64,000 bases of DNA from a virus (taxonomy: Duplodnaviria > Caudoviricetes), in the IMG/VR virus record IMGVR_UViG_3300020374_000579, positions 3,646 through 67,645 of that record. One strand, given 5' to 3'. The number at the start of each line of letters is the position of its first letter. Within the stretch, counting starts at the first letter, position 1. Shown one piece after another: positions 9,457 through 27,997 of this stretch. Under the pieces are notes generated by a model that was given only the letters and a program-made list of their open reading frames with translations, searched no databases and was not told the origin of the DNA. The position numbers and the translations under genes were made by a program.

Positions 9457-9464
9457 GTATTTAT
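9457..9464 (-). promoter_or_regulatory. Late promoter, ATG 5 nt downstream
   Basis: AATAAATA-CATGC-ATG. Confidence 0.65.
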
Positions 9465-9471: not shown

Positions 9472-9834
9472 TTATTGTGGGAGTTCGTCTTTTACGGCAG
9501 ACATAGCCTGGTCGCCTGCCATCTGAGCAACATCAACTGGTTCTTCTTCACCAGGTAATGCTACGTCACCTTCTGGTTCTGCTAAGTCGTTTGGTATTTT
9601 TCCTTTTGGAGTAATTACGTCTTGGTCTATATTAGCAACTACACCCATTTGCTCCATTGCGGCTTTCATTTCTTCAAAACTTAACATGAAGCCATCATCT
9701 GCTAACTTCATTCTAAATTCATCTGTTGGGATTTCGTTTTGCTCTTTGCCTAGATATTGTGCAAGTCTATCCATAATAACAACTTGCAAGTCATCGAAGT
9801 ATGCCTCTAGTAGGAATACATCACGTATTCGCAT
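9472..9834 (-). CDS. Hypothetical protein with capsid-targeting-like N-terminus
   Basis: MRIRDVFLLE/A leader; acidic 120 aa. Confidence 0.75.
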   Translation of the reverse strand: MRIRDVFLLEAYFDDLQVVIMDRLAQYLGKEQNEIPTDEFRMKLADDGFMLSFEEMKAAMEQMGVVANIDQDVITPKGKIPNDLAEPEGDVALPGEEEPVDVAQMAGDQAMSAVKDELPQ

Positions 9835-9835
9835 T

Positions 9836-11146
9836 TTAGACTCCTTCGGCGTCTACAGGTGCTCTGCCTAGTGGCTCTTCTTCTGGTCCAGCCGCGGCAG
9901 GATCATTAACGTCCATTGCATCTGGTTCTGCCATAGCATCTACTTCACCGTCTAATGAGGCATCCATTGGAGCATCCATTGGCTCATCCATCATTGCTGG
10001 TTGCATAGGAGCATCTCCTGTTAGTCCACCAATAGCATCGTCCATAGATTGTTTTACTGCTTTACTGGCTACAAGGTGTCCGTCTATTGCTTGAACCATT
10101 GTGTCATTAAAACCTTGTGCAACCTCGGCACCCATCTCTGCTCTCATTTGGTCTGCAATAGCAGGTAGGTCTTCGTTTACCATTTTTCCTAATCTAGCAA
10201 TTTGGTCTTGAACATCATCTGCTAATGCTCTAGCCGCCATAATAACTTCTGCTTGTTCTACTTCAACTTCTTCTGCTAACATGTCTGTGATAATATCATC
10301 AAACATGCTTTCATTTTTTGCTTGGTCTTCTTCATCGGAAGTATCACCTGTTATTTTGTACATTTTACCATCTACTTCAAAAGAATCTTTGCCTTGTGCA
10401 ATAGCATCTTTTCTAGCACCAGTAAATTTATTTTGTTCAGCAACTTTTTTACCAAACATTTGAATACCGCCAGCAACTGCATCTTCTTCTAAACCATTTA
10501 AGAAACCAACAACTGCATCTCTGCTTTTGCCACTAATTTCTGCAAACATGTTTATTTTTTCTTCAATTGCTTTTAGTGATTCAACGTCTGTCATTTCCAT
10601 GCCAACTTCTCTTGCCATTTCTCTGAAAAGTACTTCTGATAAATCTGTTTCTGGTATTGCTTGAACTTCTGGTTCAATTGATTCGTGCTTACCACCACAT
10701 GCTTCCATGTAGTCTTTAGCCGCTTTTAAAACTATCGGTAGTATAAATTCATCATCATAAGCATATCGGGGATCTTGTCTGAATTGATTCATACATTGTT
10801 TACTTGCTTCATCCATTGTGTAACCACCGTCCATCAAATTTTGTGTAGTTTGTTTAATCTCATTACACATTGATTCGTATGCGGCACCTTCCGCATATAC
10901 ACCTTCTTCAAGCATTACGTCTATGACGTCTTTTACACCTAAATACTTTGCGTATTCAGGATCTAAATTAAATTGTTTTTTGGAGTTTCTTAAAGTAATA
11001 ACGTGTGCTTGTGCCTGTTCTCTGACTTTTTCTAGTCTTGCTTTAGGATGAAACCCACTTACTTTAACTCCGTGGTTTTCTTTAAGATATGAATTTAATT
11101 CATTTATCTTTTGAATTCCAGTTTTGTTAAAATTATTTATTTTCAT
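9836..11146 (-). CDS. Putative prohead core/scaffold-like virion protein
   Basis: 436 aa, helical and acidic, many xxE-type sites, P/D/A-rich tail, late promoter upstream. Confidence 0.55.
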   Translation of the reverse strand: MKINNFNKTGIQKINELNSYLKENHGVKVSGFHPKARLEKVREQAQAHVITLRNSKKQFNLDPEYAKYLGVKDVIDVMLEEGVYAEGAAYESMCNEIKQTTQNLMDGGYTMDEASKQCMNQFRQDPRYAYDDEFILPIVLKAAKDYMEACGGKHESIEPEVQAIPETDLSEVLFREMAREVGMEMTDVESLKAIEEKINMFAEISGKSRDAVVGFLNGLEEDAVAGGIQMFGKKVAEQNKFTGARKDAIAQGKDSFEVDGKMYKITGDTSDEEDQAKNESMFDDIITDMLAEEVEVEQAEVIMAARALADDVQDQIARLGKMVNEDLPAIADQMRAEMGAEVAQGFNDTMVQAIDGHLVASKAVKQSMDDAIGGLTGDAPMQPAMMDEPMDAPMDASLDGEVDAMAEPDAMDVNDPAAAGPEEEPLGRAPVDAEGV

Positions 11147-11151
11147 TTTAT

Positions 11152-11201
11152 ATTTCCCGATAATGATAAATTGTTAATTGTATTTATCAATTATCGGAAA
11201 T
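11152..11201 (-). promoter_or_regulatory. Late promoter (11180-11188) embedded in an RBS-sequestering hairpin
   Basis: About 19-bp inverted repeat with two 1-nt bulges; one arm holds GATAAATAC, the other the GGGA SD of 9836-11146. Confidence 0.7.
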
Positions 11202-11215
11202 TTTTTGTGTTTTTA

Positions 11216-11710
11216 TTAAGTCAGGTGAATACCGTGTAGACTGTTTACATCTAATTTATTATGTAATTCTGTTCTTGCTTTACGCAAATACAGTAAAGAT
11301 AAGTCTATTCTTGCTTCTGTAGAGAAAAATAACACATCACTGTTAGTGGTTTTTAATGTGTGTTTATAAAACATTAAGTCATTTAGATGCTTATGTATTT
11401 GTCCCTGGTAACGAAGTAATGATGCTCTATAAGTAGGTAATAATGCTTTGATTTGTTTTTGATTAGCCCTATTCATTGTATGTAACAACTGATTAGCAGT
11501 TTCAACTAGTACTATTTCTTCTAAAACAACTTCTTTACTTCTACCATCTATAATTTCCCAGTCGTTGGCTTTGGTTTTTCTCTTAAAGAAAAATCCTTTA
11601 GTGCTAACGTTTTTAACCGTTTGTTCTAATTTTTTAGCAAGTGCTTGAGTTTTTGCTTTAGTAAGCCGATTCTTGCGGGTAGGTTTTGTATTTTGTTTTG
11701 CCATTGTCAT
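11216..11710 (-). CDS. Basic hypothetical protein
   Basis: 164-aa co-oriented ORF, K/R-rich N-terminus. Confidence 0.7.
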   Translation of the reverse strand: MTMAKQNTKPTRKNRLTKAKTQALAKKLEQTVKNVSTKGFFFKRKTKANDWEIIDGRSKEVVLEEIVLVETANQLLHTMNRANQKQIKALLPTYRASLLRYQGQIHKHLNDLMFYKHTLKTTNSDVLFFSTEARIDLSLLYLRKARTELHNKLDVNSLHGIHLT

Positions 11711-11876
11711 TAATTTTGAGAACTAATCCTCTTTGTCTTAACTGATTGCATGTATGTATATCATTTTCAGAAAGGTCATATTCATATATACCTTTTTCGT
11801 GTGCTAGTCTGTCAAATAATTGAAATTCTTTGGAACTACAAAATGTGGGTCCATTTTTAGAAGATAATATTCTCAT
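11658..11876 (-). CDS. Hypothetical protein (72 aa)
   Basis: Starts 1 nt after the upstream stop; possible small winged-helix-like protein. Confidence 0.65.
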   Translation of the reverse strand: MRILSSKNGPTFCSSKEFQLFDRLAHEKGIYEYDLSENDIHTCNQLRQRGLVLKINDNGKTKYKTYPQESAY

Positions 11877-11877
11877 C

Positions 11878-12066
11878 TTATCTCCTTAAAATTTTACTTT
11901 TACCTTTTGGCCCTGGTTTTTTCTTACCAATTTTTTTAGGCTTTTTAGGTTTTTGTACCACACGTTGTACATCATTAGCAATAGGTTTTACTACTGTTGC
12001 AACTGCTCCGGCACTCATGCCACCAACAGATGCTGTTTCCTTAATTATGATTTCATTTATACGCAT
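11878..12066 (-). CDS. Small basic protein with capsid-targeting-like leader (start revised to 12066)
   Basis: MRINEIIIKE/TAS..., K/P-rich tail; GATAAATA 5 nt before ATG. Confidence 0.75.
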   Translation of the reverse strand: MRINEIIIKETASVGGMSAGAVATVVKPIANDVQRVVQKPKKPKKIGKKKPGPKGKSKILRR

Positions 12067-12070
12067 AATA

Positions 12071-13363
12071 CTATTTATCAAAGTCTACATTAAATATTAG
12101 ACTAAAGTCAGTATAGTTTTTAAGCCATGTATCTAAATTAGTACTAGATGCTGTTCTTATTTCTTGCATTCTATTAGTAAATAATTCATAATTGTAGTCT
12201 GCTTGTTCTTTGTTTTGCTTTTCTATGTCTTTCCATTTGTTAGGATTTTCTTTTAACATGGATAAAGTTTCTAAATGTTGTGTTAAAAATTTTATTTTGG
12301 TAATAATATTTGTTTGAGTATCAAAATTGTTATCTGTCAAATGGTCAAATGTTTTATATCCTTTGTTTTGCAAATATTTGTATATTCTATGTGGACCAAA
12401 TATTACAAAAGGTTGTTTCATTATTATTGCTTTGTAAATTTTTTCTGTAACAACTAACGTACTATCACTAAATGTTTCAGTAATTAATTGAAAGTCGCAG
12501 TCTAGTAAATCTGTTATGAAACTATCATCTGCAGACATTTGTTTCATATGTATTATATCATCATTACGTTTATCTAATTCTATAGGATAAACTAATTGTA
12601 AATCTTTTAAGTAAGCCAACCCATCATTAAAGTCTTGTTGAGATATTTGTTTGCGTTCAGATTGTTCTATTAAATATTTTACTGTTGATGTTTGTAATTC
12701 TTGAAAGTCTACATTAGGAGTACTAATCATATTTTCTTCTTTGTCCAATGCTCCTAACAACAATGCTCTATGTGGTTTAGGAGCATTATTTAAACAACTG
12801 TACAATGTGGATTTATTTTCGTATGTGTAATCTAAATCCATATTGTTAAATTCATCATACAGTTCTGCCATAGTATCTTCTTGGAAGTTTGCTGTATAAA
12901 TTGTTTTAAAGTTTTTATAGTCTGACTTTTGTTGTATCTCTTTTATATTAATAGCACTATTACCATAAAATGTTGTATCAGGGTTTAACTTATATAACTG
13001 TACAACTTGCGATATAAACTTAAACATATAGTCATCACAATGCCCTTCAGCACTATTATCAAATAGTATTATTGCCTTATTGTTATTACATATATGTTGT
13101 GGTATAAATGTTTTATCTGTTAAATGATGTTTTTCCCAAATCTTATAAAGTTCTTTAGAGCCAATACCGTCTAAACTAATTATATATAATGTTGGTATTC
13201 GTGAACTTAACTTATCCAAATCTTTCCAGTAGTCTTCAAAAAAAGAACAAGTTCCTAATATATGGTCTCTACTAGTTCTTGGAATATTGTCTATATCTAT
13301 CCAAGACTCATTACAAGACTTTATAAATTCGTAAAATGGGTTTTGGAAGTGTGCTATTTGCAT
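12071..13363 (-). CDS. Glycosyltransferase-like protein
   Basis: C-terminal LITET...VVTEKIYKAIIMKQPFVIFG...YKTF segment resembles GT10-like sugar-transferase C-termini. Confidence 0.5.
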   Translation of the reverse strand: MQIAHFQNPFYEFIKSCNESWIDIDNIPRTSRDHILGTCSFFEDYWKDLDKLSSRIPTLYIISLDGIGSKELYKIWEKHHLTDKTFIPQHICNNNKAIILFDNSAEGHCDDYMFKFISQVVQLYKLNPDTTFYGNSAINIKEIQQKSDYKNFKTIYTANFQEDTMAELYDEFNNMDLDYTYENKSTLYSCLNNAPKPHRALLLGALDKEENMISTPNVDFQELQTSTVKYLIEQSERKQISQQDFNDGLAYLKDLQLVYPIELDKRNDDIIHMKQMSADDSFITDLLDCDFQLITETFSDSTLVVTEKIYKAIIMKQPFVIFGPHRIYKYLQNKGYKTFDHLTDNNFDTQTNIITKIKFLTQHLETLSMLKENPNKWKDIEKQNKEQADYNYELFTNRMQEIRTASSTNLDTWLKNYTDFSLIFNVDFDK

Positions 13364-13376
13364 AACACATATTTAT

Positions 13377-14555
13377 TTAGGATTTTTTGCGTCCGGACTT
13401 CATGTTGGCACACCAATGATACATTTTTGACTTCTCACCACTGCTGTTTTTTGCTTTTTTACGGAGGCTTGTTACTGAGCCTTTACAACTTGCACCTGCT
13501 TTTTTAACTCTACCAGGTCTGCTTTTGCCTTTCTTTTTACCATCAGCAAAGTTTTCAACTACCATATATGCTGGTATTTCTTTTTTACCAATGTTTAATG
13601 CTTTTTGCACTCTGTGAAATCCATCCAGTATAGTCTTGCCATCAGCATCTACTACTATAGGATCTGTTGTGTCTGCAAAATTTACATCACCCAAATCACC
13701 TATAATTCTATCAAAGCCTGGTTTATCCATCTGTAAGTCTGCTACTTTAATTGTGGTGAGTTTAGTTTTTTTGTCTTTTAAATACTGCTTTACTTTAACA
13801 CTTAAATTCCTACCTTGCTTTGTAACATCTTGCGACTTATAATTTTCACCTATTTGTTCTAGTTCGTCTATAAATGGTTGTGGGTCCATGCCCTGATTTT
13901 CAAACTCATCTATAAAGTTTCTTAATTCTATTTGATATGATTTCTTTAAAACTTTAGGATCTTCATCTCCTGTAAAATTTTTAATGCCTTTTTTAACAGT
14001 ATTCATATTGTTATCATATCCATGCTCTTCTTCTCTGTCTTGAGTCATATAGTCCCAAACATCTCGTAGCATTTTTACACCATTAATTGTAACATAATCT
14101 CTTTTTACATAAGTTCCTGGAAATGTAACAACTTCACCTTCCATTGCTTTTGCCATTTTTTGTTTCATTAATTCTTCAAAGGTAGCCGCATCACTTGACG
14201 TGTTACTAAAATGGTCAATTAATTCTTCTATTGTAGCATTAACTTTTAAAACATCTAATTTCTTTATACCCATTTGTAGTGCAACATCAAATCTATGATG
14301 TCCATTTACAATATAATTGTTTTTATCTATAACAATAGGTCTTATGCTACCATCTGCAAATCCACGTTTGGCTCTATCATGCATTCCTTTAACACGTTGA
14401 TTTTGTACTGGCATAAGTGTTTCTATGTCTACATTATGTTTGGTATAATCAAAAGGAGAATCTTTTATATCACCTTTTCTAATTTGAGGCATGATATTTC
14501 TAGGAAAGTTTTTATCTGATTTTGGTCTTTCTATTTGTAATTCTATTAATCTCAT
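13377..14555 (-). CDS. Protein with two ParB-N/sulfiredoxin-like domains and a basic C-terminal module
   Basis: RPIVIDKNNYIVNGHHR and DPIVVDADGKTILDGFHR; leader MRLIELQIE. Confidence 0.75.
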   Translation of the reverse strand: MRLIELQIERPKSDKNFPRNIMPQIRKGDIKDSPFDYTKHNVDIETLMPVQNQRVKGMHDRAKRGFADGSIRPIVIDKNNYIVNGHHRFDVALQMGIKKLDVLKVNATIEELIDHFSNTSSDAATFEELMKQKMAKAMEGEVVTFPGTYVKRDYVTINGVKMLRDVWDYMTQDREEEHGYDNNMNTVKKGIKNFTGDEDPKVLKKSYQIELRNFIDEFENQGMDPQPFIDELEQIGENYKSQDVTKQGRNLSVKVKQYLKDKKTKLTTIKVADLQMDKPGFDRIIGDLGDVNFADTTDPIVVDADGKTILDGFHRVQKALNIGKKEIPAYMVVENFADGKKKGKSRPGRVKKAGASCKGSVTSLRKKAKNSSGEKSKMYHWCANMKSGRKKS

Positions 14556-17500
14556 TACTTGAATCCAAATGCAAATTTACCACCTATTCTTGAACTGTAG
14601 TAATTTTTACTGCCATCTATTTCTACTGTACCTTGGAAGTTTGGCGGATACACAGCCTCCCATCCTGTAACTCTTGCATCATTTCCTTGTTTGCCCATTT
14701 TACAATACAACTGTACAATACTGGATTGGTTAAGAAATGCTACACAACCCTGTCCAAACTCTGGACCTGATTGATTAATTGCTCTTGTAACTTTTTTAGC
14801 AAGTAGGGCCAACATAGCATAACCTGTATTAAAGCCTGGAACATCTTGTCTCGGCGTTCCGTAATTAAATAATTCAGTACATGCAGGACTTAATCCAGCA
14901 TAGTCTTGTTTACCTTCTTGAATGTATCCATTAATTTCTTGTTCTAACCCTTGTGGTAAAATTTTGTATAACTCTGCTAATCTAAATGGGCCATCTTTTG
15001 CACTATTGCTTTGTACAATGTTGATAACATTTACTGTAACAGGAAATTGTGCTTTTAATTCTTCTGGTGCTTTAAGTATAGCATCTTGTATGTTCTTAAC
15101 ACTTGCTTTTGCACCTTTACCGCCTTTACTGCTGATACCTACTCTAGTACCATCTGGTGCTGTAAAGTAACTGTCAACAAGTGGGGCATTCATTGCCATG
15201 GGCCAAAATATACTACAACTTGACCAAGGAATACCTCTCAATAAATCTCTTCTGGCATCTTCTGCCTGTCCACCCACCATATCACTCATCAATGCAACTG
15301 GTCCCATAATTTCACCAAAGTAATCTCTTAATGCAGGCAAATTACTTATTTGTCCAGGAAATACAGGGTGTTCTTGCGTGTGTATAGTCTCTAGTGCGTT
15401 TACTAGTGTTTCAGATAGTTCATTATCAGTAGAGTTTGTTTTCACTGCTTGTATGACGTCTATGACCCCATTGAATGGGTCATCTGTCTTTATCAAGTGC
15501 TGTGGATCTATACCTATGTCTAATTTCATTGCTCCAGCAGTTTGTAATTTCCATCCTGAAGGTACTTGACTGTTACCCCATTTACCCATCATATCTGCTG
15601 TTTTTTGTTTGAAGTATCTACCCCAATATGTAATTTTATCATCTAATGCTGGATCTGTTAATACAGCAACACCAAATGCTAAACTGCCTTTATTAGGTAC
15701 ATTTGTCCAGTCTATTTGACTGTTAAGTTCTTGCTCTAATTGTTGTACAAAATCATCTCTTTGTTCAGGAGAATCAAACTCCATTTCATCTGTTGGGTAT
15801 AAATTTACACTTTGAAACTCTAATCTGTCATCACCTTTTAAAAAAGTATCACCTAATACTCTTCCCATTATGCCTTTTGATTCTATTAAACTTCTAACTT
15901 TACTTTTAGACCATTCGTTTAAATCAATTTTATCTTGTTGTTCTTTGGGTAATGCATTTATAAAATGTCTTACAATACCTCTAGCACATGCTTCGTCTCC
16001 TGCTTCGCCTCTTAAATCTCTAAATGCATCTAACATTGCAGGAATTGGTATAGCCTGAAATGCCAACATTTGTTTTTTAAGGTCTCCTACAGGAAAATGG
16101 TCTGCTAGTAAGTCATTTAAAATTTTTGTTGTTTTAATAGTTGGTACACTTTCATCTAAATCTTCTTTAGCCATGTTTGTTGCTGTTGCGTACATAACTG
16201 CTTCTGCATCTTTACCATAACGTTTTTCAAAATCTTTTTTGCTTTTCTTCATACCTTTAACATATTTTTCTTTGTCTTTCTTTTCATCTTTTGATAAAGG
16301 TCTTTCTAATACTTTTGATTCACTTAGTATTGCTAATTGTTCTTGTAAAGGTAATGCATCAAATTTAGCAAACACACTTTCATTTGCTCCGCCTTGTAAT
16401 TCTTGTCTGCCTCTTGCTAATGCACCTTGGAAGTCATTTGGTTCTTTACCTTCTTGATTGTCTCTAATTAAAACCTGTAAAACAGTTTGTTTGAAATTTT
16501 CTTCGTTGTCTGGATTTTTAAGAAATCCTACCAGTCTGTTTACATCTGGTTGTAACATATAATTTTGTATGCCATTTTGCATCAACCAATCAAATCTTTG
16601 ATATTCGTCACGCACAGCATCATAATCTTGTGTAGTTATGTCATCAGATGGATCTCTGCCTCTTGTAACTTCTGCTCTGTCCATTCTTGAACGGGCACCG
16701 TCAGGCATGGCTCTACCACCATCACCGTAAAGTTCACCTACATCATCACCAAGACTGCCGTCAGCATTTTGTCTAAAGTAGTTACCACCACTTACTGTAT
16801 AATTTGTTTTAATATATTCAACGGCAGTTTTTACACTTGCTACCCATCTTTCCACACAACAAACAGTTGGATCTGGTTCTGGTCTCCAGTTGTGGTCGCC
16901 GTCAAATGTTCTAGAAACTTTTTCTAATATGTTTGGACCTTGATTATCTACACCTCTTTCTATTTTAAAGAAGTCTGCTAAGTTAGGCCAATTTGCCGCA
17001 CCTTGAATAGTATTAGATGCTTCTCTTTCCATATGTTCGACACCAGCCGCTTTTATAATTTTTTTGTTTTCTATGGCTCTTACACCTTTTGGTGTTTGTT
17101 CCATAACTTTCTGAATAGCACTATAGAAACTAACACTATCATCCTTGTTCATCAAGTCATCGACCATTTGTTTTATTTTGCCTGCTTCTGCACCGTGATA
17201 CTTTTTAAAGTCATATGCGGCATAGGCTTTCTGGTCATTATCATCTCGCAATGTCCAAGTTATACCACTAGTACTGTTTAAAGGTTCTCCTGAAAACGGA
17301 TTTTTTAATTCTTCGGATGGGATAAGTTCTTCTACATCTCCCATTCCTGCTCTACCGTCCAACTTTCCAGTAAATTCAATTCTAAACATTTTTGATAATT
17401 TAGTTCTATCAGTACCGTCTATTTGAACATATTTGTCTTTGTTGTCTAAAGTTTTATAGTCTATTCCATACACAGAAGCAAACTTTTCAAATAACTTGCC

Positions 17501-20500: not shown

Positions 20501-21586
20501 TTCTTCTTCATATCCGTATATATCTGACAGTTCTTCAGCACCCTCTTCTTCAAATCTTTCATCACCAAATTCTCTTCTAAGCACATCTTCTCTGTAATCA
20601 TCCCAATCTGCTTGTTCTATGCCTTCATTTTCTATAAATTCATTGATATAATCTTCGTCATCTTCACGTTGAGTAACATACTCATCAATAGCACCATCCA
20701 TGTATTCATCTACTTTGTATTCATATATCCAGTCTGTAAAATTCTCTGCTATACTGTCCCAATCAACTCCACCATATTGGTCATCTATTTCACTCAGTGA
20801 TAAATTATCAACATCATCACTTTCGCCTTCTATGTTTTCCCAAACAGTTTCTGCCTCCCAACCACAACGTATTTGTGCATCAAGAGAACTGTTTATGATT
20901 TCTTTTCTATTAAAGTTTATTTCAAATAATTCTTCATGTGCTTCTTTTAAACTTAATCTTGCAAGTTGTTTTACTTTTCTTTTTTCTTGTTTAACTTTTG
21001 GCTTTAATTTGTTTAATGCTTTTCTATGTACTTTTTTAGCAATCTTGCCTTCTGCTAAATCAGGATCAACTGAAGCAACTAAGTTTGCCATTTTGTTTGC
21101 AATACCTTGACCTTTTGCAAAATTACCTTTTGTTTTACTAATTATTCCTGGACCACTAGGCATATTTTGCATTTGCTCTGCATCTTCTGGGTCATATGCA
21201 TCTACATTTTTATTTTGGTCAATGATTTCGTATTCTCCATCTTCGTCTTGTACTACCATTGCATCTGGTATATCACCATCGCCTACTGGAGATACTACTG
21301 TTTTGTTTTTATCGTCTTGTCCTACAACTACTGCACCTTTTTCTATGTCTCTAGCATTTTTTTGTTTTGGTTCAGGCATTTCAGGTTTTTCTTCTGGTGC
21401 TTTTTGTCCAAGTGTTGGACTACCAGCATCTGGTTTTTTAGCCTGTTGTGTTGTAGAAGGACTGTTTACTTTGTTTGCTTTTGCACCAGCACCTGTTTGT
21501 TGTTGAGATGTGGGTGTGCTGGCACCAGGTTTCATACCATATTCTAAAAGGATGCTTTCTAATGTTTTAACATCTTTAAACTTCAT
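14555..21586 (-). CDS. 2343-aa multidomain protein: amidoligase (COOH-NH2 ligase type 2-like) plus C-terminal restriction-endonuclease-like domain
   Basis: CGWEAE, VESDSSI, GAEIISP, TGLHVT, KFRAIHF, IEFRIAGG; C-terminal YFGE...PLVDSYF...GISSK; leader MKFKDVKTLESILLE. Confidence 0.7.
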   Translation of the reverse strand: MKFKDVKTLESILLEYGMKPGASTPTSQQQTGAGAKANKVNSPSTTQQAKKPDAGSPTLGQKAPEEKPEMPEPKQKNARDIEKGAVVVGQDDKNKTVVSPVGDGDIPDAMVVQDEDGEYEIIDQNKNVDAYDPEDAEQMQNMPSGPGIISKTKGNFAKGQGIANKMANLVASVDPDLAEGKIAKKVHRKALNKLKPKVKQEKRKVKQLARLSLKEAHEELFEINFNRKEIINSSLDAQIRCGWEAETVWENIEGESDDVDNLSLSEIDDQYGGVDWDSIAENFTDWIYEYKVDEYMDGAIDEYVTQREDDEDYINEFIENEGIEQADWDDYREDVLRREFGDERFEEEGAEELSDIYGYEEENWAREYVDEFRGQDFRDYLEELAKEDDDVRQAAYEEASESYDYDDWINDQYYSMSSFCDDYGIDYSVGSNLGEVADIVSNWMENNSAFTDTSVDYGDYGNTDGSTTNYAVESDSSIDGYGTGAEIISPVFSTPRRMLTEMKKFFTMLEDKGALTNNSTGLHVTMSYNPQEGEIVNHDPGSSIVKANRVKMAVLLGDQYLLNEFMRKANTYTKSQYKELQKAIGQLKQKTGSEGIKIAEKFLEQHISDDKFRAIHFKGQTDSKTNTKLIEFRIAGGEDYERDFDKVFKATVRYATTMIAGHTNQYEGDYVKALSRLLNKASEVAAGDESEVEDLKGRYEDIASDPVLDSTKAIISSNKYLDFTKQMLRAMEQLKLAKTYLDPEADLKWKKQWMKYVNNTDASLDDFDSSLKRDLDSIKGEKIKEEEKSENDRSIKAYFKPDMQKPSSRASQEKLQGLKDLSEALGMLAVDVAQGVARQQPNAKSIGALRTFLKKYEISYKDLDENLKISIDDIAFGDNVKGSGAGKLTPQVRMEIIRKGIEKLLSKDIISRPDYISAPQVESLVKGIWNVMNSKQFNPTVLKELTTLGINLRIGKDSNIDKTEVIEDTKRLFKDASGKRQFNDFYNGLTTSTYNSGTYFVQPGMVFDKESFNNMVSFVKQFDSYNEPVNRNHNPNIYGDDSYEDVSLSNYTMLLRRRFLFLENQFETDKSKAIKSLKLMVPMFEKFFNTNKIGLDRDGRDAYDKPDWEEIIGIERDEVQDLPNMSDKEKEDLYDLLGERDGAPYLGIEPYKYERIQGTLDDIIKNTTDERTINNMQDFITDSIRESLGAYYRNKERYPGYFKFPEVKTIIAQRFKGLSEFMRGLDKIFVQNGFDSQDNSIKRKQQLSKDRENFEKKIRSKSYATINIPAHSITFMKKNYYDELDLQRTATSDVKIADPGETMLKDMINGAENVNKGSRPGIFFVVPAAHWGPLNDAVGGSEIIAIYQKVGNMSQNWRIKNYGKLFEKFASVYGIDYKTLDNKDKYVQIDGTDRTKLSKMFRIEFTGKLDGRAGMGDVEELIPSEELKNPFSGEPLNSTSGITWTLRDDNDQKAYAAYDFKKYHGAEAGKIKQMVDDLMNKDDSVSFYSAIQKVMEQTPKGVRAIENKKIIKAAGVEHMEREASNTIQGAANWPNLADFFKIERGVDNQGPNILEKVSRTFDGDHNWRPEPDPTVCCVERWVASVKTAVEYIKTNYTVSGGNYFRQNADGSLGDDVGELYGDGGRAMPDGARSRMDRAEVTRGRDPSDDITTQDYDAVRDEYQRFDWLMQNGIQNYMLQPDVNRLVGFLKNPDNEENFKQTVLQVLIRDNQEGKEPNDFQGALARGRQELQGGANESVFAKFDALPLQEQLAILSESKVLERPLSKDEKKDKEKYVKGMKKSKKDFEKRYGKDAEAVMYATATNMAKEDLDESVPTIKTTKILNDLLADHFPVGDLKKQMLAFQAIPIPAMLDAFRDLRGEAGDEACARGIVRHFINALPKEQQDKIDLNEWSKSKVRSLIESKGIMGRVLGDTFLKGDDRLEFQSVNLYPTDEMEFDSPEQRDDFVQQLEQELNSQIDWTNVPNKGSLAFGVAVLTDPALDDKITYWGRYFKQKTADMMGKWGNSQVPSGWKLQTAGAMKLDIGIDPQHLIKTDDPFNGVIDVIQAVKTNSTDNELSETLVNALETIHTQEHPVFPGQISNLPALRDYFGEIMGPVALMSDMVGGQAEDARRDLLRGIPWSSCSIFWPMAMNAPLVDSYFTAPDGTRVGISSKGGKGAKASVKNIQDAILKAPEELKAQFPVTVNVINIVQSNSAKDGPFRLAELYKILPQGLEQEINGYIQEGKQDYAGLSPACTELFNYGTPRQDVPGFNTGYAMLALLAKKVTRAINQSGPEFGQGCVAFLNQSSIVQLYCKMGKQGNDARVTGWEAVYPPNFQGTVEIDGSKNYYSSRIGGKFAFGFK

Positions 21587-21588
21587 TT

Positions 21589-21885
21589 TTATCTTCGCTT
21601 ACTAGTACTTCTATTAAGTTGTCTTAGACGTCTACTTGCAGGATTCAACCTTTTTGTTCTGTTTGCTTTTCTGCTAAGACGTTTACCCATTTTTGCTTTT
21701 GTTCTTTTCAACGTCATACGTTTTTTCATATTGATAGGCGCAGAACATTGTGCTGGGTTACTCACAACTCTGCCTTTACGTCTTCCGGTTGTACACCTTA
21801 CAGCACGTTTAATTTTCTTGCCCATTTTACGCCAAACCATACGGGCTTCAAAAATTTCTTCTTCAACTATCTCATTTAGTCTCAT
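21589..21885 (-). CDS. Very basic (protamine-like) protein with capsid-targeting-like leader
   Basis: MRLNEIVEEEIFE/A followed by R/K-dominated sequence. Confidence 0.75.
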   Translation of the reverse strand: MRLNEIVEEEIFEARMVWRKMGKKIKRAVRCTTGRRKGRVVSNPAQCSAPINMKKRMTLKRTKAKMGKRLSRKANRTKRLNPASRRLRQLNRSTSKRR

Positions 21886-21888
21886 ATT

Positions 21889-22329
21889 TTACCATTTCCT
21901 ACATGACCAATAACGTGCTTTTGTTTTTGGTCCTGGGTTTTCACAATTATGTCTTGCTCTAAAACTTTTACGTCTTGCTGGATTAGACTTTTTAATTCTC
22001 ATGTTAGGATCACCAAAATTTACTTTTTTAGTATTACCTGTTTTAGGATCTTTAACATATACCTTGAACTTCTTAACATCACCTTGCATAGGTTTATTAA
22101 GTTTTACTTTACGTCCTTGATATTCTGCTTCAAACATACCCTCTTCATCGTATGCAAGATATCCAAATTCTTCATGAAAGTCTTGATTGTCTTCTAGTGT
22201 AATAGATTCACCGACTAGTTTTCCTCTAAAAGGATGTGGACTTTCATTACCCATATTAGGTTTTATTTTTTTAGGTTTTTTTGTGTTTGCCTTTACCTGG
22301 TCGGCTTCAAATATTTCACTTAATTTCAT
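21889..22329 (-). CDS. Putative head-internal protein; C-terminal module recalls DUF6321
   Basis: MKLSEIFE/A leader; KVNFGDPNM...SFRARHNC...ARYWSCRKW. Confidence 0.65.
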   Translation of the reverse strand: MKLSEIFEADQVKANTKKPKKIKPNMGNESPHPFRGKLVGESITLEDNQDFHEEFGYLAYDEEGMFEAEYQGRKVKLNKPMQGDVKKFKVYVKDPKTGNTKKVNFGDPNMRIKKSNPARRKSFRARHNCENPGPKTKARYWSCRKW

Positions 22330-22331
22330 TT

Positions 22332-22586
22332 TTAACTTCCAAATACGTTTACTAGTAAACTAACTACTATTGCAATCAGTGTGGTAAAACTTGTACCCAC
22401 TATTGCAACAAGCCAATTTTCCATTTTGTTTAGTCTGTGCTTTGTATCTTCTTTGAATTCTCTCAATTCTGTAGTAATGCTTTCAATACGAAGCATATCC
22501 GCTATGATGTGTGCTTCTAGATTATTGGAATCTGCATAAACTTGTTTTTGCTGTTCCAACTTTTGTTCTGGTTTTGGTTCTTTCAT
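22332..22586 (-). CDS. Small coiled-coil protein with C-terminal TM helix (holin/XhlA-like)
   Basis: 84 aa; hydrophobic WLVAIVGTSFTTLIAIVVSLLVNVF. Confidence 0.5.
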   Translation of the reverse strand: MKEPKPEQKLEQQKQVYADSNNLEAHIIADMLRIESITTELREFKEDTKHRLNKMENWLVAIVGTSFTTLIAIVVSLLVNVFGS

Positions 22587-22990
22587 TATAATAGATCCTG
22601 TTTAGTAAATTCGGTGTTCACAGTATTTTTTGTATCTATAACACCGCCGTTAAGCACAATTCCATGTAACTCATCTTTTAAAGAGTCTACACTATGAGCA
22701 CCTGGTATTTCAGTTGCAAACTTAAAAATATATCCTGCACCTGTTAATGTTGGTGCACCATAATTTTGTAGCAAGTTTGAACCTCCTCCATTTAATTCTA
22801 CTGGATTATTCATCACAGTAGGCATTGCTCTTAATCCTATACATTGAACTACACTTTCAAAATCTTTTTGACTATTGTCATTGTAGTCGCCTGTAACTGT
22901 TATGTTTAAAGTAGTAAACAAGGTAAAAAATTCTATGTTACCTGTTAGTACTTCTATAGAGCCCATTGCTCCACTTCTTGTTAGACTCAT
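22586..22990 (-). CDS. Putative small virion structural protein
   Basis: 134 aa, AGGAGA SD, late promoter at 23011-23019. Confidence 0.65.
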   Translation of the reverse strand: MSLTRSGAMGSIEVLTGNIEFFTLFTTLNITVTGDYNDNSQKDFESVVQCIGLRAMPTVMNNPVELNGGGSNLLQNYGAPTLTGAGYIFKFATEIPGAHSVDSLKDELHGIVLNGGVIDTKNTVNTEFTKQDLL

Positions 22991-23040
22991 TGTGTCTCCT
23001 GTGTATAACTGTATTTATCACTTTATGCTTTTGTACAGTC

Positions 23041-23071
23041 AAAAAAAATCCCCACACAAGGTGGGGATTTT
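23041..23071 (-). terminator. Rho-independent terminator
   Basis: 11-bp stem AAAATCCCCAC/GTGGGGATTTT, 5-nt loop, run of 8 U on the minus strand. Confidence 0.88.
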
Positions 23072-23091
23072 AAAAGTTAATTACTTTTAGG

Positions 23092-23424
23092 TTACACTAC
23101 TCTGTATTCTCCAGCAGTCACAGTTGCGTTTGCACCGTTTCCTGTTAGCATTGGTTGAATAGCCGCTAATAATCTAGCCGCGGTAGGGGAACCTTCAACA
23201 CCAACGTGCATTACTGTAGCAGAAATGCTGTTGATTAGTACTGGAGTACAAATTGTTGATAAGCCTTGAACAACTAATTCACCTTTCTGTGCATTACCAC
23301 TTGAAAAACCGAATTGGCTGATATTGTCAGTACCATCTACTTCATCAATAATGAAGTGACTTAAAGTACCAACCATAAGTTGACTGTTATCAAGAACTGC
23401 ACCATTTACTCTTGTTTGTGCCAT
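23092..23424 (-). CDS. Putative abundant small virion (capsid decoration-like) protein
   Basis: 110 aa; own TATAAATA promoter, strong SD and own terminator. Confidence 0.6.
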   Translation of the reverse strand: MAQTRVNGAVLDNSQLMVGTLSHFIIDEVDGTDNISQFGFSSGNAQKGELVVQGLSTICTPVLINSISATVMHVGVEGSPTAARLLAAIQPMLTGNGANATVTAGEYRVV

Positions 23425-23447
23425 GATAGTCTCCTACTGTATCATTT

Positions 23448-23511
23448 GCATATTCGTGGTCTCTAAACCACCACCGTTTTAAAGAATATGCTTTGGATAA
23501 TAGTATTTATA
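23448..23511 (-). promoter_or_regulatory. Late promoter TATAAATAC (23503-23511) and structured 5' leader
   Basis: Stems GCATATTC/GAATATGC and GTGGT/ACCAC. Confidence 0.7.
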
Positions 23512-23538
23512 TAAGATTGATAGAAATTTAAAAAGGAC

Positions 23539-24144
23539 TTAAACTGTTATGCTTCTGTTTTTTCCAGTAGGTTTAGTTAAGTCTGAGAATTTGTTGCCTA
23601 ATTCACCTGCAATGTCTTGTCCTCTGCCTATTGCGTCTAATGTATCACCTGCTTTGAAGTTGTATGCAAATTTGGCTGTGTCTATGCCTTTTTTGATTGC
23701 GTTTTGTACTGCTCCAATACCACCACCTGGAGTATATTTTCTAGCATTTTGATTACCTAGTTGAGCACCACGTTTTCTAGCATTTTGATTGCCTAGAGGA
23801 GCACCTTGTTTATTACCACCTTGATTGTTGCCTCCAGCACTAGCAAAAGAACGTTCTTTATTAACTTCTACTTCTGCTTTATCTGGATTATCTTGATAAT
23901 ACTTTACTGCTTTGTCAACAGCATTACCCACAGATACTTGATTGCTTTTAAAGTATTCTGTTTTTGCCTGTTGAATTGTTGCTGTAAAAGGTATATTAAA
24001 GTATTCAGTTTGTCTTGGGCCGCCTGGATATGTAAAAATTTTATCTGTTAATTCTTCTTTTGCCTTAACATCTAATTCTCTCATAGACAGTTTTGGACGA
24101 ACTTGTGGTTTTTCATCCTCTAAAATAATATCTTTAATACGCAT
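23539..24144 (-). CDS. Hypothetical protein with capsid-targeting-like leader
   Basis: MRIKDIILE/D; G/N/Q-rich middle; TATAAATA 5 nt before ATG. Confidence 0.75.
   Translation of the reverse strand: MRIKDIILEDEKPQVRPKLSMRELDVKAKEELTDKIFTYPGGPRQTEYFNIPFTATIQQAKTEYFKSNQVSVGNAVDKAVKYYQDNPDKAEVEVNKERSFASAGGNNQGGNKQGAPLGNQNARKRGAQLGNQNARKYTPGGGIGAVQNAIKKGIDTAKFAYNFKAGDTLDAIGRGQDIAGELGNKFSDLTKPTGKNRSITV
23737..23808 (-). repeat. Two-copy 36-bp in-frame tandem repeat (GAPLGNQNARK / GAQLGNQNARK)
   Basis: Units 23737-23772 and 23773-23808. Confidence 0.9.
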
Positions 24145-24152
24145 AACTGTAT

Positions 24153-25226
24153 TTATACCTTTTTACGACCACTTGCCCAGTAGCCTGCAATAGCACCTAT
24201 ACCAGCACCAGTTTTACTACCTAACTTATTTTTTGTAAGTTTAGGCACAATTTTACTACCCACATAAGCACCACCAACTGTAGCGGCGGCTCTTTTTAAT
24301 GCACTAGTAGGTTTTTCTTTGTTTACATTATCATATCTTCTTGTGGTTTTCATAGCCATCAAGTGTTGGAATACTTCTGCACCTTTGCCTTTTAATCTAA
24401 TACGTTGCACTAGTTTAGATACTATGTATTGTTTTTGACTGTACTTCAATTGAGGCCAATCCAAAATTAAACGTCTTAACTGTTTGAATTGTGCATCTTT
24501 AATTTGTAATTGTTGTTCTAATCTTATCAAATAAGAACTTGCATCACTTCTGCTAGGAGTATATCTAGCAATTTTATTCATAAACATGTAATGCTGTCTG
24601 TTGTTAAAATTAAGTTTATCTAATACTTTTCTTTCTTTGTTTTTTAATTTTAATGACTTGTAATTAGGATTATCAACAGCAAATGCCAGCATGTATATAT
24701 CAGTTGCACTTGTTCTAAAGGCGGCATAAGGACCATATTGTGTTGTTTTTCTTGCGTATGCTGTACCATAATCTTGTTGTTTACTGTCTAAGGCAAACAT
24801 ATAAACTGCAAGTGTTTCTAAATATAATAAGTCTGCAATGTCTCTTCCAGTTAGTCTATTGTAACTAGCAGTGAATCTAAACAATCTACTTTCACTGATT
24901 TCAGAATCTATTAATTGATACATTTCTGTTTTAACATTTTCTTCAACTTTATAAATGCTGTACAACACAGGATTTCCATCTATGCCTAAGTCATCATATG
25001 AATGTCCACGTTGTATAGGTTTTGCTTCTTGGCGTTCATCAAAATCTCTATAAACATCTTGATAAATTTTGTGTATTTGGTCATCATCGTGCCCATAGTT
25101 ACATTGGTCAGAAAAACCTTCGTAATGAATAACAAACTTACCCATGTCTGTGTCCACAGTATCTTTGCCAACATCATCTGGAGTAAGGCTTCTTATGAAA
25201 CTTTGTACTTCTCTTGGTATGTTCAT
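24153..25226 (-). CDS. Hypothetical protein, probable virion protein
   Basis: 357 aa; C-terminal glycine-zipper-like GGAYVG...GAGIGAIAG. Confidence 0.75.
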   Translation of the reverse strand: MNIPREVQSFIRSLTPDDVGKDTVDTDMGKFVIHYEGFSDQCNYGHDDDQIHKIYQDVYRDFDERQEAKPIQRGHSYDDLGIDGNPVLYSIYKVEENVKTEMYQLIDSEISESRLFRFTASYNRLTGRDIADLLYLETLAVYMFALDSKQQDYGTAYARKTTQYGPYAAFRTSATDIYMLAFAVDNPNYKSLKLKNKERKVLDKLNFNNRQHYMFMNKIARYTPSRSDASSYLIRLEQQLQIKDAQFKQLRRLILDWPQLKYSQKQYIVSKLVQRIRLKGKGAEVFQHLMAMKTTRRYDNVNKEKPTSALKRAAATVGGAYVGSKIVPKLTKNKLGSKTGAGIGAIAGYWASGRKKV

Positions 25227-26497
25227 GTTGTTGGTTTTCCTGTATCAAAATTTAATCTGCTAAATTCTAATCTGTCTACTATTTTTAAAGCATTACCCAT
25301 TCTGTCCACAGCAACAAAACCTTCCTCGCCTGTTACTTCAAAACCTTTTTCTGATTGTACAAATGTGTCCATAACTCTAATTTGTTCTAGTTTTCTCACA
25401 ATTTTTACTTTTGCTTCTATAATTTTTAAATATAAATCATAAACACTTACAATACTAGGTATATGTTCTCTGATAAATTTTACACCTTGGATCATTAGGT
25501 CTGTTTTAGCATCTATAGTTTTTTGTGTTTTAACTTTGTCTATTTCTTTAGTCATAAAATCTATATACTTTTGTATAAAATCTTTGGCAAATTTAGTTGG
25601 ATCTTGTTCAAGGGCACCGGCTCTAATACTATTATTTACATGTGCTTTTAGTTGTTGTAAAAAATTTTTTCCTACTAAATCTGTTCCTTGTTGTAGCCAT
25701 GCAAATGTTTCACCATCTACACTTTTTAAATATTCGTCAGCAACACTAATAGCCTGCATGATGTCTGCACTTTCTTCTGCTGTAAATGTTACAGTACCAC
25801 TAAGGTCTTTGATAATTGCATCTCTGTGCCAAACACCTGTTGCTTTACCTAACACACTACTGTCGAATCCAAACTTTGCAGTAGTATCTGCCAGTGTTGG
25901 GCCGCCAACATATTCTGTATGCCACACAATACCAAAATCACTCTTTGCTATGTCTTTTGCAAGTTGGCTTTTAGTAGGTACTGCATAAGTTAATGTGTTT
26001 GGTGTAAATGTTAAATAATCTTCACCATCTATGCTTTGTCTTTTTAATGTGTCTTTTGCAAATAAAAAATCACCTTGTGCTACAGTGGACCATTTTAGTT
26101 TACTTAACATGTTCAATGCTAACTTTAATTTGTCTTGTAATCCTTCTGCAGGGTGGTTTGCTTCTATATCTTTGGTGGTAAAATTAATTTTAGGTTTTCT
26201 TGCAAACACACCTTTGGTGCCTACAAAGAACTTTCCAGTTTCAGGATCTTTGCCTGCCACAATGGCTGGAGCACCGTCCCATTTTGTTGTCATTGATACT
26301 GGAGAGTTTGTACTGCCGTCTAACATTTCATGTAGACTGTACAAATAGTTTATTGCTTCTTTGGCACCGTCATATCCTTTATTGAATATGTTATCTTCTA
26401 AATGCTCTAAATGAGTATTCTTGCCTTCTGCTTCTGCAATAGCACTTTCTGTTAATATACTAGTAACAAGAGGTTTTGTGAACTCTTGGAACTTCAT
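25223..26497 (-). CDS. ATP-dependent ligase-fold nucleotidyltransferase (RNA ligase-like; recalls DUF6267)
   Basis: Motif I TKWDG, III AQGDF, IV EEGFVAV, V LKIV; leader MKFQEFTKPLVTSILTE. Confidence 0.7.
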   Translation of the reverse strand: MKFQEFTKPLVTSILTESAIAEAEGKNTHLEHLEDNIFNKGYDGAKEAINYLYSLHEMLDGSTNSPVSMTTKWDGAPAIVAGKDPETGKFFVGTKGVFARKPKINFTTKDIEANHPAEGLQDKLKLALNMLSKLKWSTVAQGDFLFAKDTLKRQSIDGEDYLTFTPNTLTYAVPTKSQLAKDIAKSDFGIVWHTEYVGGPTLADTTAKFGFDSSVLGKATGVWHRDAIIKDLSGTVTFTAEESADIMQAISVADEYLKSVDGETFAWLQQGTDLVGKNFLQQLKAHVNNSIRAGALEQDPTKFAKDFIQKYIDFMTKEIDKVKTQKTIDAKTDLMIQGVKFIREHIPSIVSVYDLYLKIIEAKVKIVRKLEQIRVMDTFVQSEKGFEVTGEEGFVAVDRMGNALKIVDRLEFSRLNFDTGKPTT

Positions 26498-26498
26498 A

Positions 26499-27710
26499 CT
26501 AAACTCCTGCTAGTTTCTTCAGTTCTTCTAATTCAATGGCTTCATTTAGTTCATCAATTGCTTTAGTTGGAACTAATAAAACATCAGCACCTTTCTTTTC
26601 TGATATCAAAACCTTATAACCACATTGTTCCCAAGTGATACCATTTGCTTCAAAAATTGTATTTAGGGCATCATATGATTCTTTTGCCATTGCTCTAACT
26701 TTTGGCATAAACGATCCATACCATTCTGGTTCAGTTTTTTTCAAAGGAGAGTTTTTTAACATAGCACCAAATTGAATTGCATAATCATCTAAGCCGGATA
26801 TGTCAGGTCGTTGTTTTTTAAAAGCCGCTAATTTATCAATCCATTGTTTAGCATATTCAATTTTTTCTGAATCAGTTTTAGCATTTTTGAAAAAAGTAAG
26901 CGGTTCTTCCAATGCAAATCTCAACTGTCCATTATGACGGTCTCTGATGTCTCCACCAGTTTTTTCTGGTGCGGGACCTTTTTTCATCACATTAGCCATT
27001 GCTCTACCAATACCTGCACCTGCTACTGCACCAACTTTTTGTGCCGTACTTGCATCTGGGTCCATTCTTGTTTTACTAGCAAGTGGTCCACCAATTGCTT
27101 TATTAATTGCATCTGCTCCGGCTTGCTTCATTTTTTCTATTGCACCAGGACCTTGTCCTACACCTTTTGCAATGCTTGTAAGTTCCATAGAACGAGCATC
27201 TTTTGGTGCAAGTGGGTAAACACCTTTAACAGGTTTAGCATATTGAGTGTCAAATGTTGTTGATCCATCTTTTTCTTTTTTGGCTTTTACACCATCAACT
27301 TCCATCCATTGACTACCTTTATCGGTTTTTTCCAATCGATAAAATATACCATCTGGATGCTGTACCACTCTACCAACCTTCATGTCTTTTCTGTGTTTGG
27401 CAAAGTCGCTAACAACACCACCTTTTTTGGATTTTTTTATATTATTTTGGTTTTGTTGGGCTATTGCTCGGTTAATTGCATTTTGCTGTGATTTTGCTAA
27501 TACGCCACCTGCTGTTTTGTTTCCTAGTTTATCACCTTTATCAATTTTCTGCTTTGAACTTTGACCTTGTGGTTTGGGTTTTGAAGCATACTGCCGACCG
27601 GCTTGTGTGCCTTTAGCAAATTTTCCCCCAGCACCACGTTTGATTCCCATTTCGGCATCTTTTTTCTGTTGGTCTGGCGTAATTTCTTGTACTAAATCAT
27701 TAAATTTCAT
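26499..27710 (-). CDS. Basic hypothetical protein with capsid-targeting-like leader (start revised to 27710)
   Basis: MKFNDLVQE/I; ends ELEELKKLAGV. Confidence 0.75.
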   Translation of the reverse strand: MKFNDLVQEITPDQQKKDAEMGIKRGAGGKFAKGTQAGRQYASKPKPQGQSSKQKIDKGDKLGNKTAGGVLAKSQQNAINRAIAQQNQNNIKKSKKGGVVSDFAKHRKDMKVGRVVQHPDGIFYRLEKTDKGSQWMEVDGVKAKKEKDGSTTFDTQYAKPVKGVYPLAPKDARSMELTSIAKGVGQGPGAIEKMKQAGADAINKAIGGPLASKTRMDPDASTAQKVGAVAGAGIGRAMANVMKKGPAPEKTGGDIRDRHNGQLRFALEEPLTFFKNAKTDSEKIEYAKQWIDKLAAFKKQRPDISGLDDYAIQFGAMLKNSPLKKTEPEWYGSFMPKVRAMAKESYDALNTIFEANGITWEQCGYKVLISEKKGADVLLVPTKAIDELNEAIELEELKKLAGV

Positions 27711-27963: not shown

Positions 27964-27997
27964 TTGTTGTTTCCTATGTTATATGCATATTTATCTT

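Follow-up and report, generated by a model that had tools for sequence, protein, structure and literature searches.

The window analysed here is a 64 kb stretch of a 67.6 kb linear IMG/VR contig (IMGVR_UViG_3300020374_000579; CheckV completeness ~19%) with a G+C content of ~34% and nearly every gene on the minus strand. It contains a block of 18 genes (9472-27963) in which nine mutually dissimilar proteins begin with the same short N-terminal leader, probably a capsid-targeting propeptide of the kind known from phage T4. The tail sheath encoded in the window shares 47% identity with its counterpart in Pseudomonas phage PA5oct and is similar to the sheaths of other jumbo phages of the T4 superfamily, and the gene order from the sheath to the ribonucleotide reductase (RNR) is that of PA5oct. 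In addition, the DUF6267 protein of the block (25223-26497) has an identical copy on a separate contig of 328,937 bp. Because of the PA5oct-like sheath and synteny together with this identical protein, the window is assigned, on sequence grounds, to a PA5oct-related T4-like jumbo myophage with a genome of roughly 330 kb, of which it is a fragment. A megablast search of the block against cultured phages gave no match.

A gene block with a common N-terminal leader

The leader was defined by a strict pattern, ^M[KR][ILFVM].[DE][ILVFM], which was scanned over the 74 genes of the 67.6 kb contig and was found at ten gene starts (9834, 12066, 14555, 21586, 21885, 22329, 24144, 26497, 27710 and 55276). 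The start at 53508 features a variant leader, shifted by one residue. These eleven N-termini had all been quoted in a first-pass annotation of the window, and every one of them is present on the minus strand at the start assigned to it.

In the direction of transcription, the block opens with an 87-amino-acid (aa) protein (27700-27963) which lacks the strict leader, has a conserved I-L-E-E-L near its N-terminus and matches the virion structural protein family phrog_11854 (E 1e-13), with a late-promoter-like box 24 nucleotides (nt) upstream. It is followed by a 403-aa lysine-rich protein (26499-27710) with the strict leader and V-Q-E at residues 7-9, whose orthologues, 27-35% identical, keep the pattern and feature I/L-x-E. 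In the adjoining 424-aa DUF6267 protein (25223-26497), a 17-aa leader ending in L-T-E and a short linker precede a domain with a predicted RNA-ligase-like nucleotidyltransferase fold (AlphaFold2 (AF2) model). The strict leader of a 201-aa protein (23539-24144) includes I-L-E at residues 7-9 and stands behind a late box 5 nt before the ATG; an orthologue keeps 8/9 of the leader residues, compared with 22% identity over the rest. Two strict leaders on basic proteins come next: a 146-aa protein (21889-22329) with I-F-E at residues 6-8, and a 98-aa protein (21589-21885), whose mature part consists of 38% lysine and arginine (K/R) with zero acidic residues; at its leader junction, four relatives likewise have [IL]-x-E and then A-R-M. 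The largest product, with 2343 aa (14555-21586), combines the strict leader (L-L-E at residues 13-15) with low-complexity and acidic regions and an amidoligase-like domain at ~420-720, and a 392-aa protein (13377-14555) joins the strict leader to two ParB-N/Srx-like domains (with GHHR and GFHR; phrog_620, phrog_2859) and a basic C-terminal tail. Further downstream, a 62-aa protein (11878-12066; late box 5 nt upstream) consists of the strict leader and a tail with 36% K/R, and a 436-aa protein (9836-11146) features a variant leader, with N in place of D/E at position 5 and I-N-E at residues 14-16. The latter belongs to phrog_14154 (virion structural protein) and is homologous to the PA5oct virion protein EST35_0237, detected by mass spectrometry (MS; blastp 6e-17); as a tblastn query it gave no match. 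The block ends with a 120-aa acidic protein (9472-9834), in which the strict leader is closed by L-L-E ending at residue 10; both the pattern and this L-L-E recur in the L001 orthologue. Outside the block, the leader offset by one residue, with I-T-E at residues 8-10, is carried by a 234-aa protein (52804-53508; late box 21 nt upstream), a homologue of the PA5oct virion protein EST35_0202, and the tenth strict leader by a 51-aa basic peptide (55121-55276) encoded between AurF-like oxygenase and radical S-adenosylmethionine (SAM) genes.

The strict pattern was found at none of the 539 internal methionine residues of the contig's genes. Shuffling of the N-terminal columns leads to an expectation of 0.59 hits, with none of 20,000 shuffles reaching ten and the largest yielding five, and the internal frequency of the pattern to an expectation of 0.085. 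Nine of the ten strict leaders belong to the 18 genes of the block (hypergeometric P = 3.9e-6), and the earlier observation of nine such leaders in these 18 kb is confirmed. Likewise, the replication and nucleotide-metabolism genes, stated to lack it, were found without the pattern (RNR, primase, helicases, thymidylate synthase and the homologues of gp32 and UvsX were checked). The starts at 12066 and 27710 are the second candidate starts of their open reading frames; each has a late-promoter box or a Shine-Dalgarno site immediately before it, and orthologues also begin at these positions, which supports both assignments. The putative cleavage motif [LI]-x-E is reached within 5-17 residues in 10 of the 11 leaders, that of start 27710 having V-x-E, compared with a background of 19.5% of 20-aa windows containing the motif.

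The mature parts of the leader proteins share no similarity with each other (all-against-all blastp E > 0.01), by which paralogy of the cargo proteins was ruled out. At the same time, the codons of leader position 2 vary (CGA, CGT, AGA, AAG, AAA), as do those of the acidic residue (GAT, GAA, GAG). Because unrelated mature parts are combined with differing codons for the same residue classes, selection acts on the protein, and the leader is best described as a protein-level signal, neither a product of paralogy nor a feature of the mRNA. The pattern is kept in orthologues on related contigs which are only 22-35% identical in their mature part. Moreover, the hydrophobic pair at motif positions 3 and 6 is invariant and has the same spacing as positions 4 and 7 of the T4 leader. 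The clustered and adjacent arrangement of the leader genes might also suggest a functionless relic of duplication or recombination between the 5' ends of genes, and T-even internal-protein genes are reportedly shuffled at their leader sequences, a report not found in the literature searched. Such a relic is nevertheless extremely improbable, as the leader genes share neither DNA-level nor mature-protein similarity and purifying selection keeps the pattern in the diverged orthologues and as far as PA5oct and the IMG/VR contig G001.

Besides the leader genes, the block includes genes without a leader, encoding an exonuclease, an oxidoreductase, a tail-fibre-like protein and two small paralogous virion-type proteins. 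Two small leaderless genes (22586-22990 and 23092-23424) each feature their own late box and a strong ribosome-binding site and are separated by a strong intrinsic terminator, a hairpin of 11 pairs followed by a T run on the minus strand (23045-23071), 3' of gene 23092-23424. PA5oct has a corresponding adjacent pair, EST35_0233/0234, both members of which were detected in virions; the product of 22586-22990 matches EST35_0234, and that of 23092-23424 is without a match in PA5oct. Both window products may be abundant head or decoration proteins. Outside the block, a three-gene insertion relative to PA5oct (54068-56343) lies between a head-completion gene and the next conserved gene. It consists of the AurF-like di-iron oxygenase gene (55273-56343), the gene for the leader-bearing 51-aa basic peptide (55121-55276) and the radical SAM enzyme gene (54068-55117), and could be a cassette for a modified peptide, similar to ribosomally synthesized and post-translationally modified peptides, with a packaged product.

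DUF6267 and further putative cargo proteins

The product of 25223-26497 matches the Pfam family DUF6267 with an E value of 1e-104, starting at residue 27. The family is widespread in T4-like cyanophages, pelagiphages and other phages, and its N-termini differ. The DUF6267 protein of cyanophage S-PRM1 begins directly at the conserved domain, that of HTVC008M has a short extension ending in L-V-E, and that of Stenotrophomonas phage DLP_6 carries a leader resembling those of T4. In T4, internal protein IPIII carries the leader MKTYQEFIAE (PMC8442874); targeting depends on positions 4 and 7 of the leader, and processing on positions 8 and 10 (PMC9026906). A survey of 150 representatives of DUF6267, clustered at 50% identity, included 104 with short N-termini, 16 of them without an extension and 88 with an extension of at least 10 residues. 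In 83 of these 88 extensions, only 0-6 residues separate the end of the last [LIV]-x-E from the conserved domain. Furthermore, 38 extensions follow the form M-K-S/T-F-K-Q-F/Y-L/I-x-E and match the IPIII leader at positions 1, 2, 3, 4, 7, 8 and 10, the T4-like class featuring F/Y at positions 4 and 7, and another 13 carry a leader of the type found in the window. Among 120 close homologues of the window protein, the leader residues vary, with the pattern and an ending in [IL]-[IL]-x-E kept in nearly all. Most members of the family in other phages bear a T4-like N-terminal leader, and those of cyanophages bear none. The occurrence of the same domain naked, with a T4-type or with a jumbo-type leader resembles a natural leader swap and would be the strongest argument for reading the shared N-terminus as a propeptide.

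A first AF2 model of DUF6267, based on a shallow alignment of 15 sequences at least 70% identical, reached a predicted local distance difference test score (pLDDT) of 60 with no meaningful fold match and was redone with a deeper alignment. The second model, derived from 101 diverse sequences, shows a pLDDT of 90.6 and a predicted template modelling score of 0.87, with residues 1-21 disordered (pLDDT below 50) and outside the fold. In these 101 sequences (mean column identity 32%), K72, D74, E392, G393 and K405 are invariant and G75 is at least 90% conserved. Comparison by VIA-align resulted in matches to 5cot_A (Z 8.3, root-mean-square deviation 3.9, 189 residues aligned), 1xdn (Z 7.8), 1s68 (Z 7.5) and 9do4 (Z 7.1); RNA ligases account for nine of the 14 highest rows, at Z values which, being below 8-9, are middling. 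The top Foldseek matches of the model were ligases as well (E 0.04-0.3). Like the ATP-dependent RNA ligases T4 Rnl1 and Rnl2, the Naegleria nick-sealing ligase and kinetoplastid REL1, the protein has K-x-D-G, then E-G and finally a K, arranged as ligase motifs I, IV and V are, and its model bears a middling resemblance to the adenylyltransferase fold (Z 7.1-8.3 over 178-189 residues). Unlike these ligases, it contains a helical insertion of ~145 residues between motifs III and IV. Searches with the sequences of the DUF6267 protein and the giant 2343-aa protein against PDB chains found nothing, and DUF6267 showed no sequence-level match to a solved ligase; NCBIfam provided nothing useful, and hhalign comparisons of DUF6267 with the PA5oct DNA ligase and with PA5oct gp228 showed no significant match. 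Taken together, DUF6267 may be an RNA-ligase-like enzyme, the match being moderate and not a proof. No capsid-targeting leader is known for T4 Rnl1 and Rnl2.

The other leader proteins are diverse. Five are basic in their mature part, with 36-39% K/R (starts 12066, 21885 and 55276) or a net charge of +12 (22329) and +24 (27710), and in this respect they resemble the T4 internal proteins, which were described as 'highly basic' (PMC8442874). The 392-aa protein (13377-14555) matches phrog_620 at residues 69-107 (E 4e-12) and further ParB-like PHROGs, with a second copy at residues 254-337; there was no Pfam match at E 0.01. For the 2343-aa protein, the Pfam family Amidoligase_2 (PF12224) was found at E 0.0026 and 18.1 bits, below the cut-off of 22, and its Atlas neighbours were Amidoligase_2 clusters in 30 of 30 cases (score 0.96). 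Residues 363-697 additionally gave tblastn matches to the jumbo phages Atu_ph07 and RsoM2USA, so that the presence of an amidoligase domain appears moderately supported. The C-terminus yielded only weak restriction-endonuclease leads, and the orthologues in L001 and L020 retain the leader. The first-pass annotation had described the payload as enzyme-rich. This description finds support in the RNA-ligase-like fold and the ParB/Srx domains and moderate support in the amidoligase, where a sub-cut-off Pfam hit and the Atlas agree; the supposed nuclease-like C-terminus was reduced to a weak lead.

Virion proteins of relatives and predicted late expression

PA5oct offers a comparison with a phage whose virion was analysed, 93 virion-associated proteins having been reported (Lood et al. 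2020, PMC7318152). The main text of that paper does not mention leaders or propeptides and uses 'cleav' only for a cell-wall hydrolase (PMC7318152). Most of the PA5oct block from helicase to RNR (EST35_0225-0242) bears the annotation 'structural protein, ESI-MS/MS' (electrospray ionization tandem MS), and MS-detected PA5oct homologues exist for the products of 9836-11146, 22586-22990, 31161-31970, 48543-50747 and 52804-53508 and for the N-terminus of that of 3924-6602. Gene 3924-6602 begins with TTG, 15 nt downstream of a late box, and encodes an 892-aa protein whose N-terminus is of the Mtd_N type (tropism-determinant, tail-fibre-like) and whose first 60 residues match the PA5oct virion protein EST35_0241. 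A scan of the whole PA5oct genome revealed ten annotated coding sequences with the strict leader, 7/10 of them MS-detected versus 93/461 overall (P = 7.9e-4). One strict leader belongs to a 73-aa protein encoded between portal and protease, an interval which in the T4 gene order holds the core-protein genes gp67/68. PA5oct encodes a Peptidase_S77 of the gp21 family (gp152; E 5e-24) and a capsid protein of the Gp23 family (gp154). In EST35_0271 (L006 31882-32268, minus strand), which was not detected in virions, a better second start yields a strict leader ending in I-L-E; the true start may lie five codons downstream of the annotated one. A homologue of the 2343-aa protein could not be detected in PA5oct, where a DUF6267 homologue is doubtful; the giant structural protein EST35_0300 (2236 aa) was considered as a counterpart of the 2343-aa protein and rejected as not homologous.

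Similar conditions were found in a second relative, IMG/VR contig G001 (201.7 kb, 57% complete). Of its 222 genes, eleven have a strict leader, and ten of these cluster at 127.6-163 kb beside the primase-helicase-DUF6267 region (P = 6e-7); a Peptidase_S77 gene lies at 74.0-74.6 kb. In G002, the Peptidase_S77 protease also shares the contig with a leader cluster. Moreover, the capsid proteins of G001 and PA5oct have an L-x-E-G site near residue 19 in common. The leader might instead direct proteins to a target other than the capsid, such as a chaperone, a phage Clp-type protease, a membrane or a replication compartment, and PA5oct-like phages do encode homologues of ClpX, ClpA, ClpP, ClpS and FtsH. 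This is very unlikely, however, given that the leader co-varies with a gp21-type cleavage motif, matches the functional positions of the T4 leader in DUF6267, is enriched among virion-detected proteins and is encoded by genes in late structural operons.

The timing of expression can be estimated from promoter-like elements. The block is headed by a late-promoter-like box, GATAAATA, on the minus strand at 27988-27995, and further late boxes lie on the same strand at 24150-24157, 23504-23510, 23012-23019, 13370-13376, 12072-12079, 11181-11188 and 9458-9464. GATAAATA occurs in 12 copies, compared with an expectation of 5.8; the coding strand holds 11 copies, each just upstream of a gene. For ATAAATA, the distance from the end of the box to a start downstream is at most 75 nt in 18 of the 25 coding-strand copies (binomial P = 2e-14). 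The NATAAATA boxes precede the genes for the sheath, tube, large terminase (TerL) and PHROG 'virion structural' proteins and, likewise, the transcription units of the block (starts 27963, 24144, 23424, 22990, 13363, 12066, 11146 and 9452). The exact T4 late box TATAAATA was rejected as a candidate, being found five times versus 10.6 expected; the enriched form is GATAAATA/NATAAATA, corresponding to a T4-type late promoter with the first T replaced by G or A. By inference from T4 biology, the box would be used by late genes and the block expressed late alongside the head genes. Clear TTGAC...TATAAT promoters stand upstream of RNR, primase, gp32-like and other early-type genes, and sigma-70-like promoters are no commoner inside the block than in shuffles.

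At the starts 54049, 52392, 37497, 24144, 13363, 12066 and 9452, the NATAAATA box ends 5-6 nt before the ATG, and a Shine-Dalgarno sequence is absent. Because of this short distance and the missing ribosome-binding site, leaderless late mRNAs are suggested for these genes; in other late genes, 12-59 nt separate the box from the start, and a normal ribosome-binding site lies in between. Promoter boxes so close to the ATG of several late genes, together with the frequency of M-K starts in A/T-rich genomes, could point to the pattern as a feature of translation initiation or of late, partly leaderless messages, for instance A/T-rich early codons, devoid of any signal in the protein. Most leader genes, however, possess ordinary Shine-Dalgarno sites, synonymous or class-equivalent codons differ as listed above, and late genes including leaderless TerL (start 52392) as well as 54049 and 13363 lack the pattern. 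As the pattern further tracks virion detection in PA5oct and the DUF6267 extensions end with [LIV]-x-E at the domain boundary, an origin in the mRNA is highly improbable.

Proposed capsid targeting and comparison with known systems

According to these observations, the shared N-terminus is likely a capsid-targeting propeptide of the T4 kind on otherwise unrelated late proteins. A T4-like leader common to unrelated proteins had been proposed at the outset, and the occurrence and conservation of the pattern, the late promoters, the enrichment in PA5oct virions, the protease in a relative and the leader exchange in DUF6267 agree with it. In the proposed course, the cargo proteins would be synthesised late, and their leader, two hydrophobic residues three positions apart beside one basic and one acidic residue, would bind to the scaffolding core of the assembling prohead, by which the protein is enclosed. 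The prohead protease of the gp21 family (Peptidase_S77) would then cut after the first accessible [L/I]-x-E and free a peptide of 8-17 residues, with the mature protein staying in the head with the DNA. Small and very basic cargo, similar to T4 internal proteins, probably lies on the DNA, and larger cargo would comprise enzymes, namely the RNA-ligase-like DUF6267 protein, the tandem ParB/Srx protein and the 2343-aa protein with the amidoligase domain. At least part of the cargo probably enters the host on ejection of the DNA. For core binding, cleavage, retention in the head, ejection and a role in the host, this course is inferred from T4 (PMC9026906, PMC3012670).

Several points weigh against this propeptide reading. 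Motif positions 3-5 overlap with [LI]-x-E, which renders the two features partly non-independent. The leader gene at 55121-55276 adjoins radical SAM and oxygenase genes and may serve another role. In PA5oct, three of the ten leader proteins were undetected in virions, and few of the window's leader proteins have detectable homologues there. The PA5oct virion list further includes gp32 (EST35_0207), UvsX/RecA (EST35_0210) and RNR-subunit homologues, and because of these entries it is considered to contain abundant non-structural contaminants. The co-occurrence of protease and leaders was seen only in relatives; genes for a prohead protease (Peptidase_S77), portal and capsid were absent from the window's contig, an absence which is uninformative at a completeness of only ~19%.

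The fate of the cargo in the head allows a further explanation, and the cargo could equally be accounted for as head-internal proteins for DNA packing or as core proteins. The leaders would then still target the prohead, on assembly-only core or scaffold proteins or DNA-condensing internal proteins of a very large head, which are degraded and expelled or kept as packing and have no role in the next host. T4 provides a precedent, as its core proteins gp22, gp67 and gp68 are cut by gp21 (PMC9026906). One PA5oct leader protein is located at the gp67/68 position, several cargo proteins are small with 36-39% K/R and no recognisable domain, and the 2343-aa protein contains long low-complexity and acidic regions. 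Folded enzyme-like cargo, such as an RNA-ligase-like fold with invariant catalytic motifs or ParB/Srx domains, fits a scaffold badly, and T4 leader-bearing proteins and leader fusions were shown to be retained and delivered into cells (PMC9026906). A purely structural function of all cargo is thus unlikely.

Going beyond capsid targeting, it is tentatively suggested, with doubt prevailing, that a marine and soil lineage of jumbo T4-like phages loads a changing set of ready-made enzymes via a short, degenerate and transferable N-terminal tag and injects it as a kit for repair or counter-defence before phage gene expression, for example for resealing RNA or DNA cut by host defence nucleases. The set in question includes the RNA-ligase-like DUF6267 protein, the tandem ParB/Srx nucleotide-processing protein and the 260 kDa amidoligase-bearing protein; a canonical T4-type leader is found on DUF6267 in many T4-like phages of smaller size. 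Should the tag act like that of T4, the N-terminal pattern combined with [L/I]-x-E would predict packaged and possibly injected proteins of uncultured jumbo phages without virion proteomes. For DUF6267, a widespread family of unknown function, the likeness offers a first functional handle as an RNA-ligase-like enzyme apparently pre-packaged by many phages of the T4 superfamily, which would point to injected nucleic-acid repair as a possible counter-defence. Besides, the leaders may serve as new short sequences for loading foreign proteins into large capsids, a purpose for which the T4 leader is already used. No paper on such leaders in PA5oct-like phages or in DUF6267 was found within an incomplete coverage of the literature.

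Among the known systems, the capsid-targeting sequences and internal proteins of T4 are similar in several aspects. There, too, a leader of ~10 residues occupies the extreme N-terminus of unrelated late proteins (PMC9026906, PMC8442874, PMC3012670), a hydrophobic or aromatic pair is spaced by three positions (Y4 and F7 in T4, positions 3 and 6 in the window), and the leader ends in L/I-x-E. Both systems include many small basic cargo proteins, a Peptidase_S77 protease is present in relatives of the window phage, and DUF6267 in other phages bears a nearly canonical T4-type leader. As read from the T4 record, gp24 starts with M-A-K-I-N-E-L-L-R-E, which is nearly the window motif at an offset of one residue, and in Alt, gp22 and inh, [L/I]-x-E or F-D-E is complete by residue 9-10. 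Unlike in T4, the consensus in the window is M-[KR]-hydrophobic-x-[DE]-hydrophobic, in which the acidic position comes one residue earlier, with leader lengths of 8-17 residues. At least ten tagged genes occur in a fifth of the window phage's genome, whereas T4 has a handful, and the cargo includes enzyme-like proteins of up to 2343 aa in a jumbo phage of the PA5oct lineage (~330 kb) rather than in a T-even phage.

The phiKZ-like giant phages (phiKZ, 201phi2-1, SPN3US) represent a second comparison, as a diverged homologue of gp21 cleaves dozens of their head proteins behind Glu and large enzymes are packaged and ejected (PMC9026906, PMC7411985, PMC10052503). In contrast to the window phage, cleavage takes place at S/A/G-x-E, many of the propeptides are long and internal, and a short targeting consensus common to their N-termini has not been described. 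Moreover, these phages belong to another lineage with a virion RNA polymerase and, in many cases, a phage nucleus. PA5oct shares with the window phage the gene order, a syntenic block largely detected in virions and seven virion-detected proteins with the same leader, whereas the sets of cargo differ between the two.

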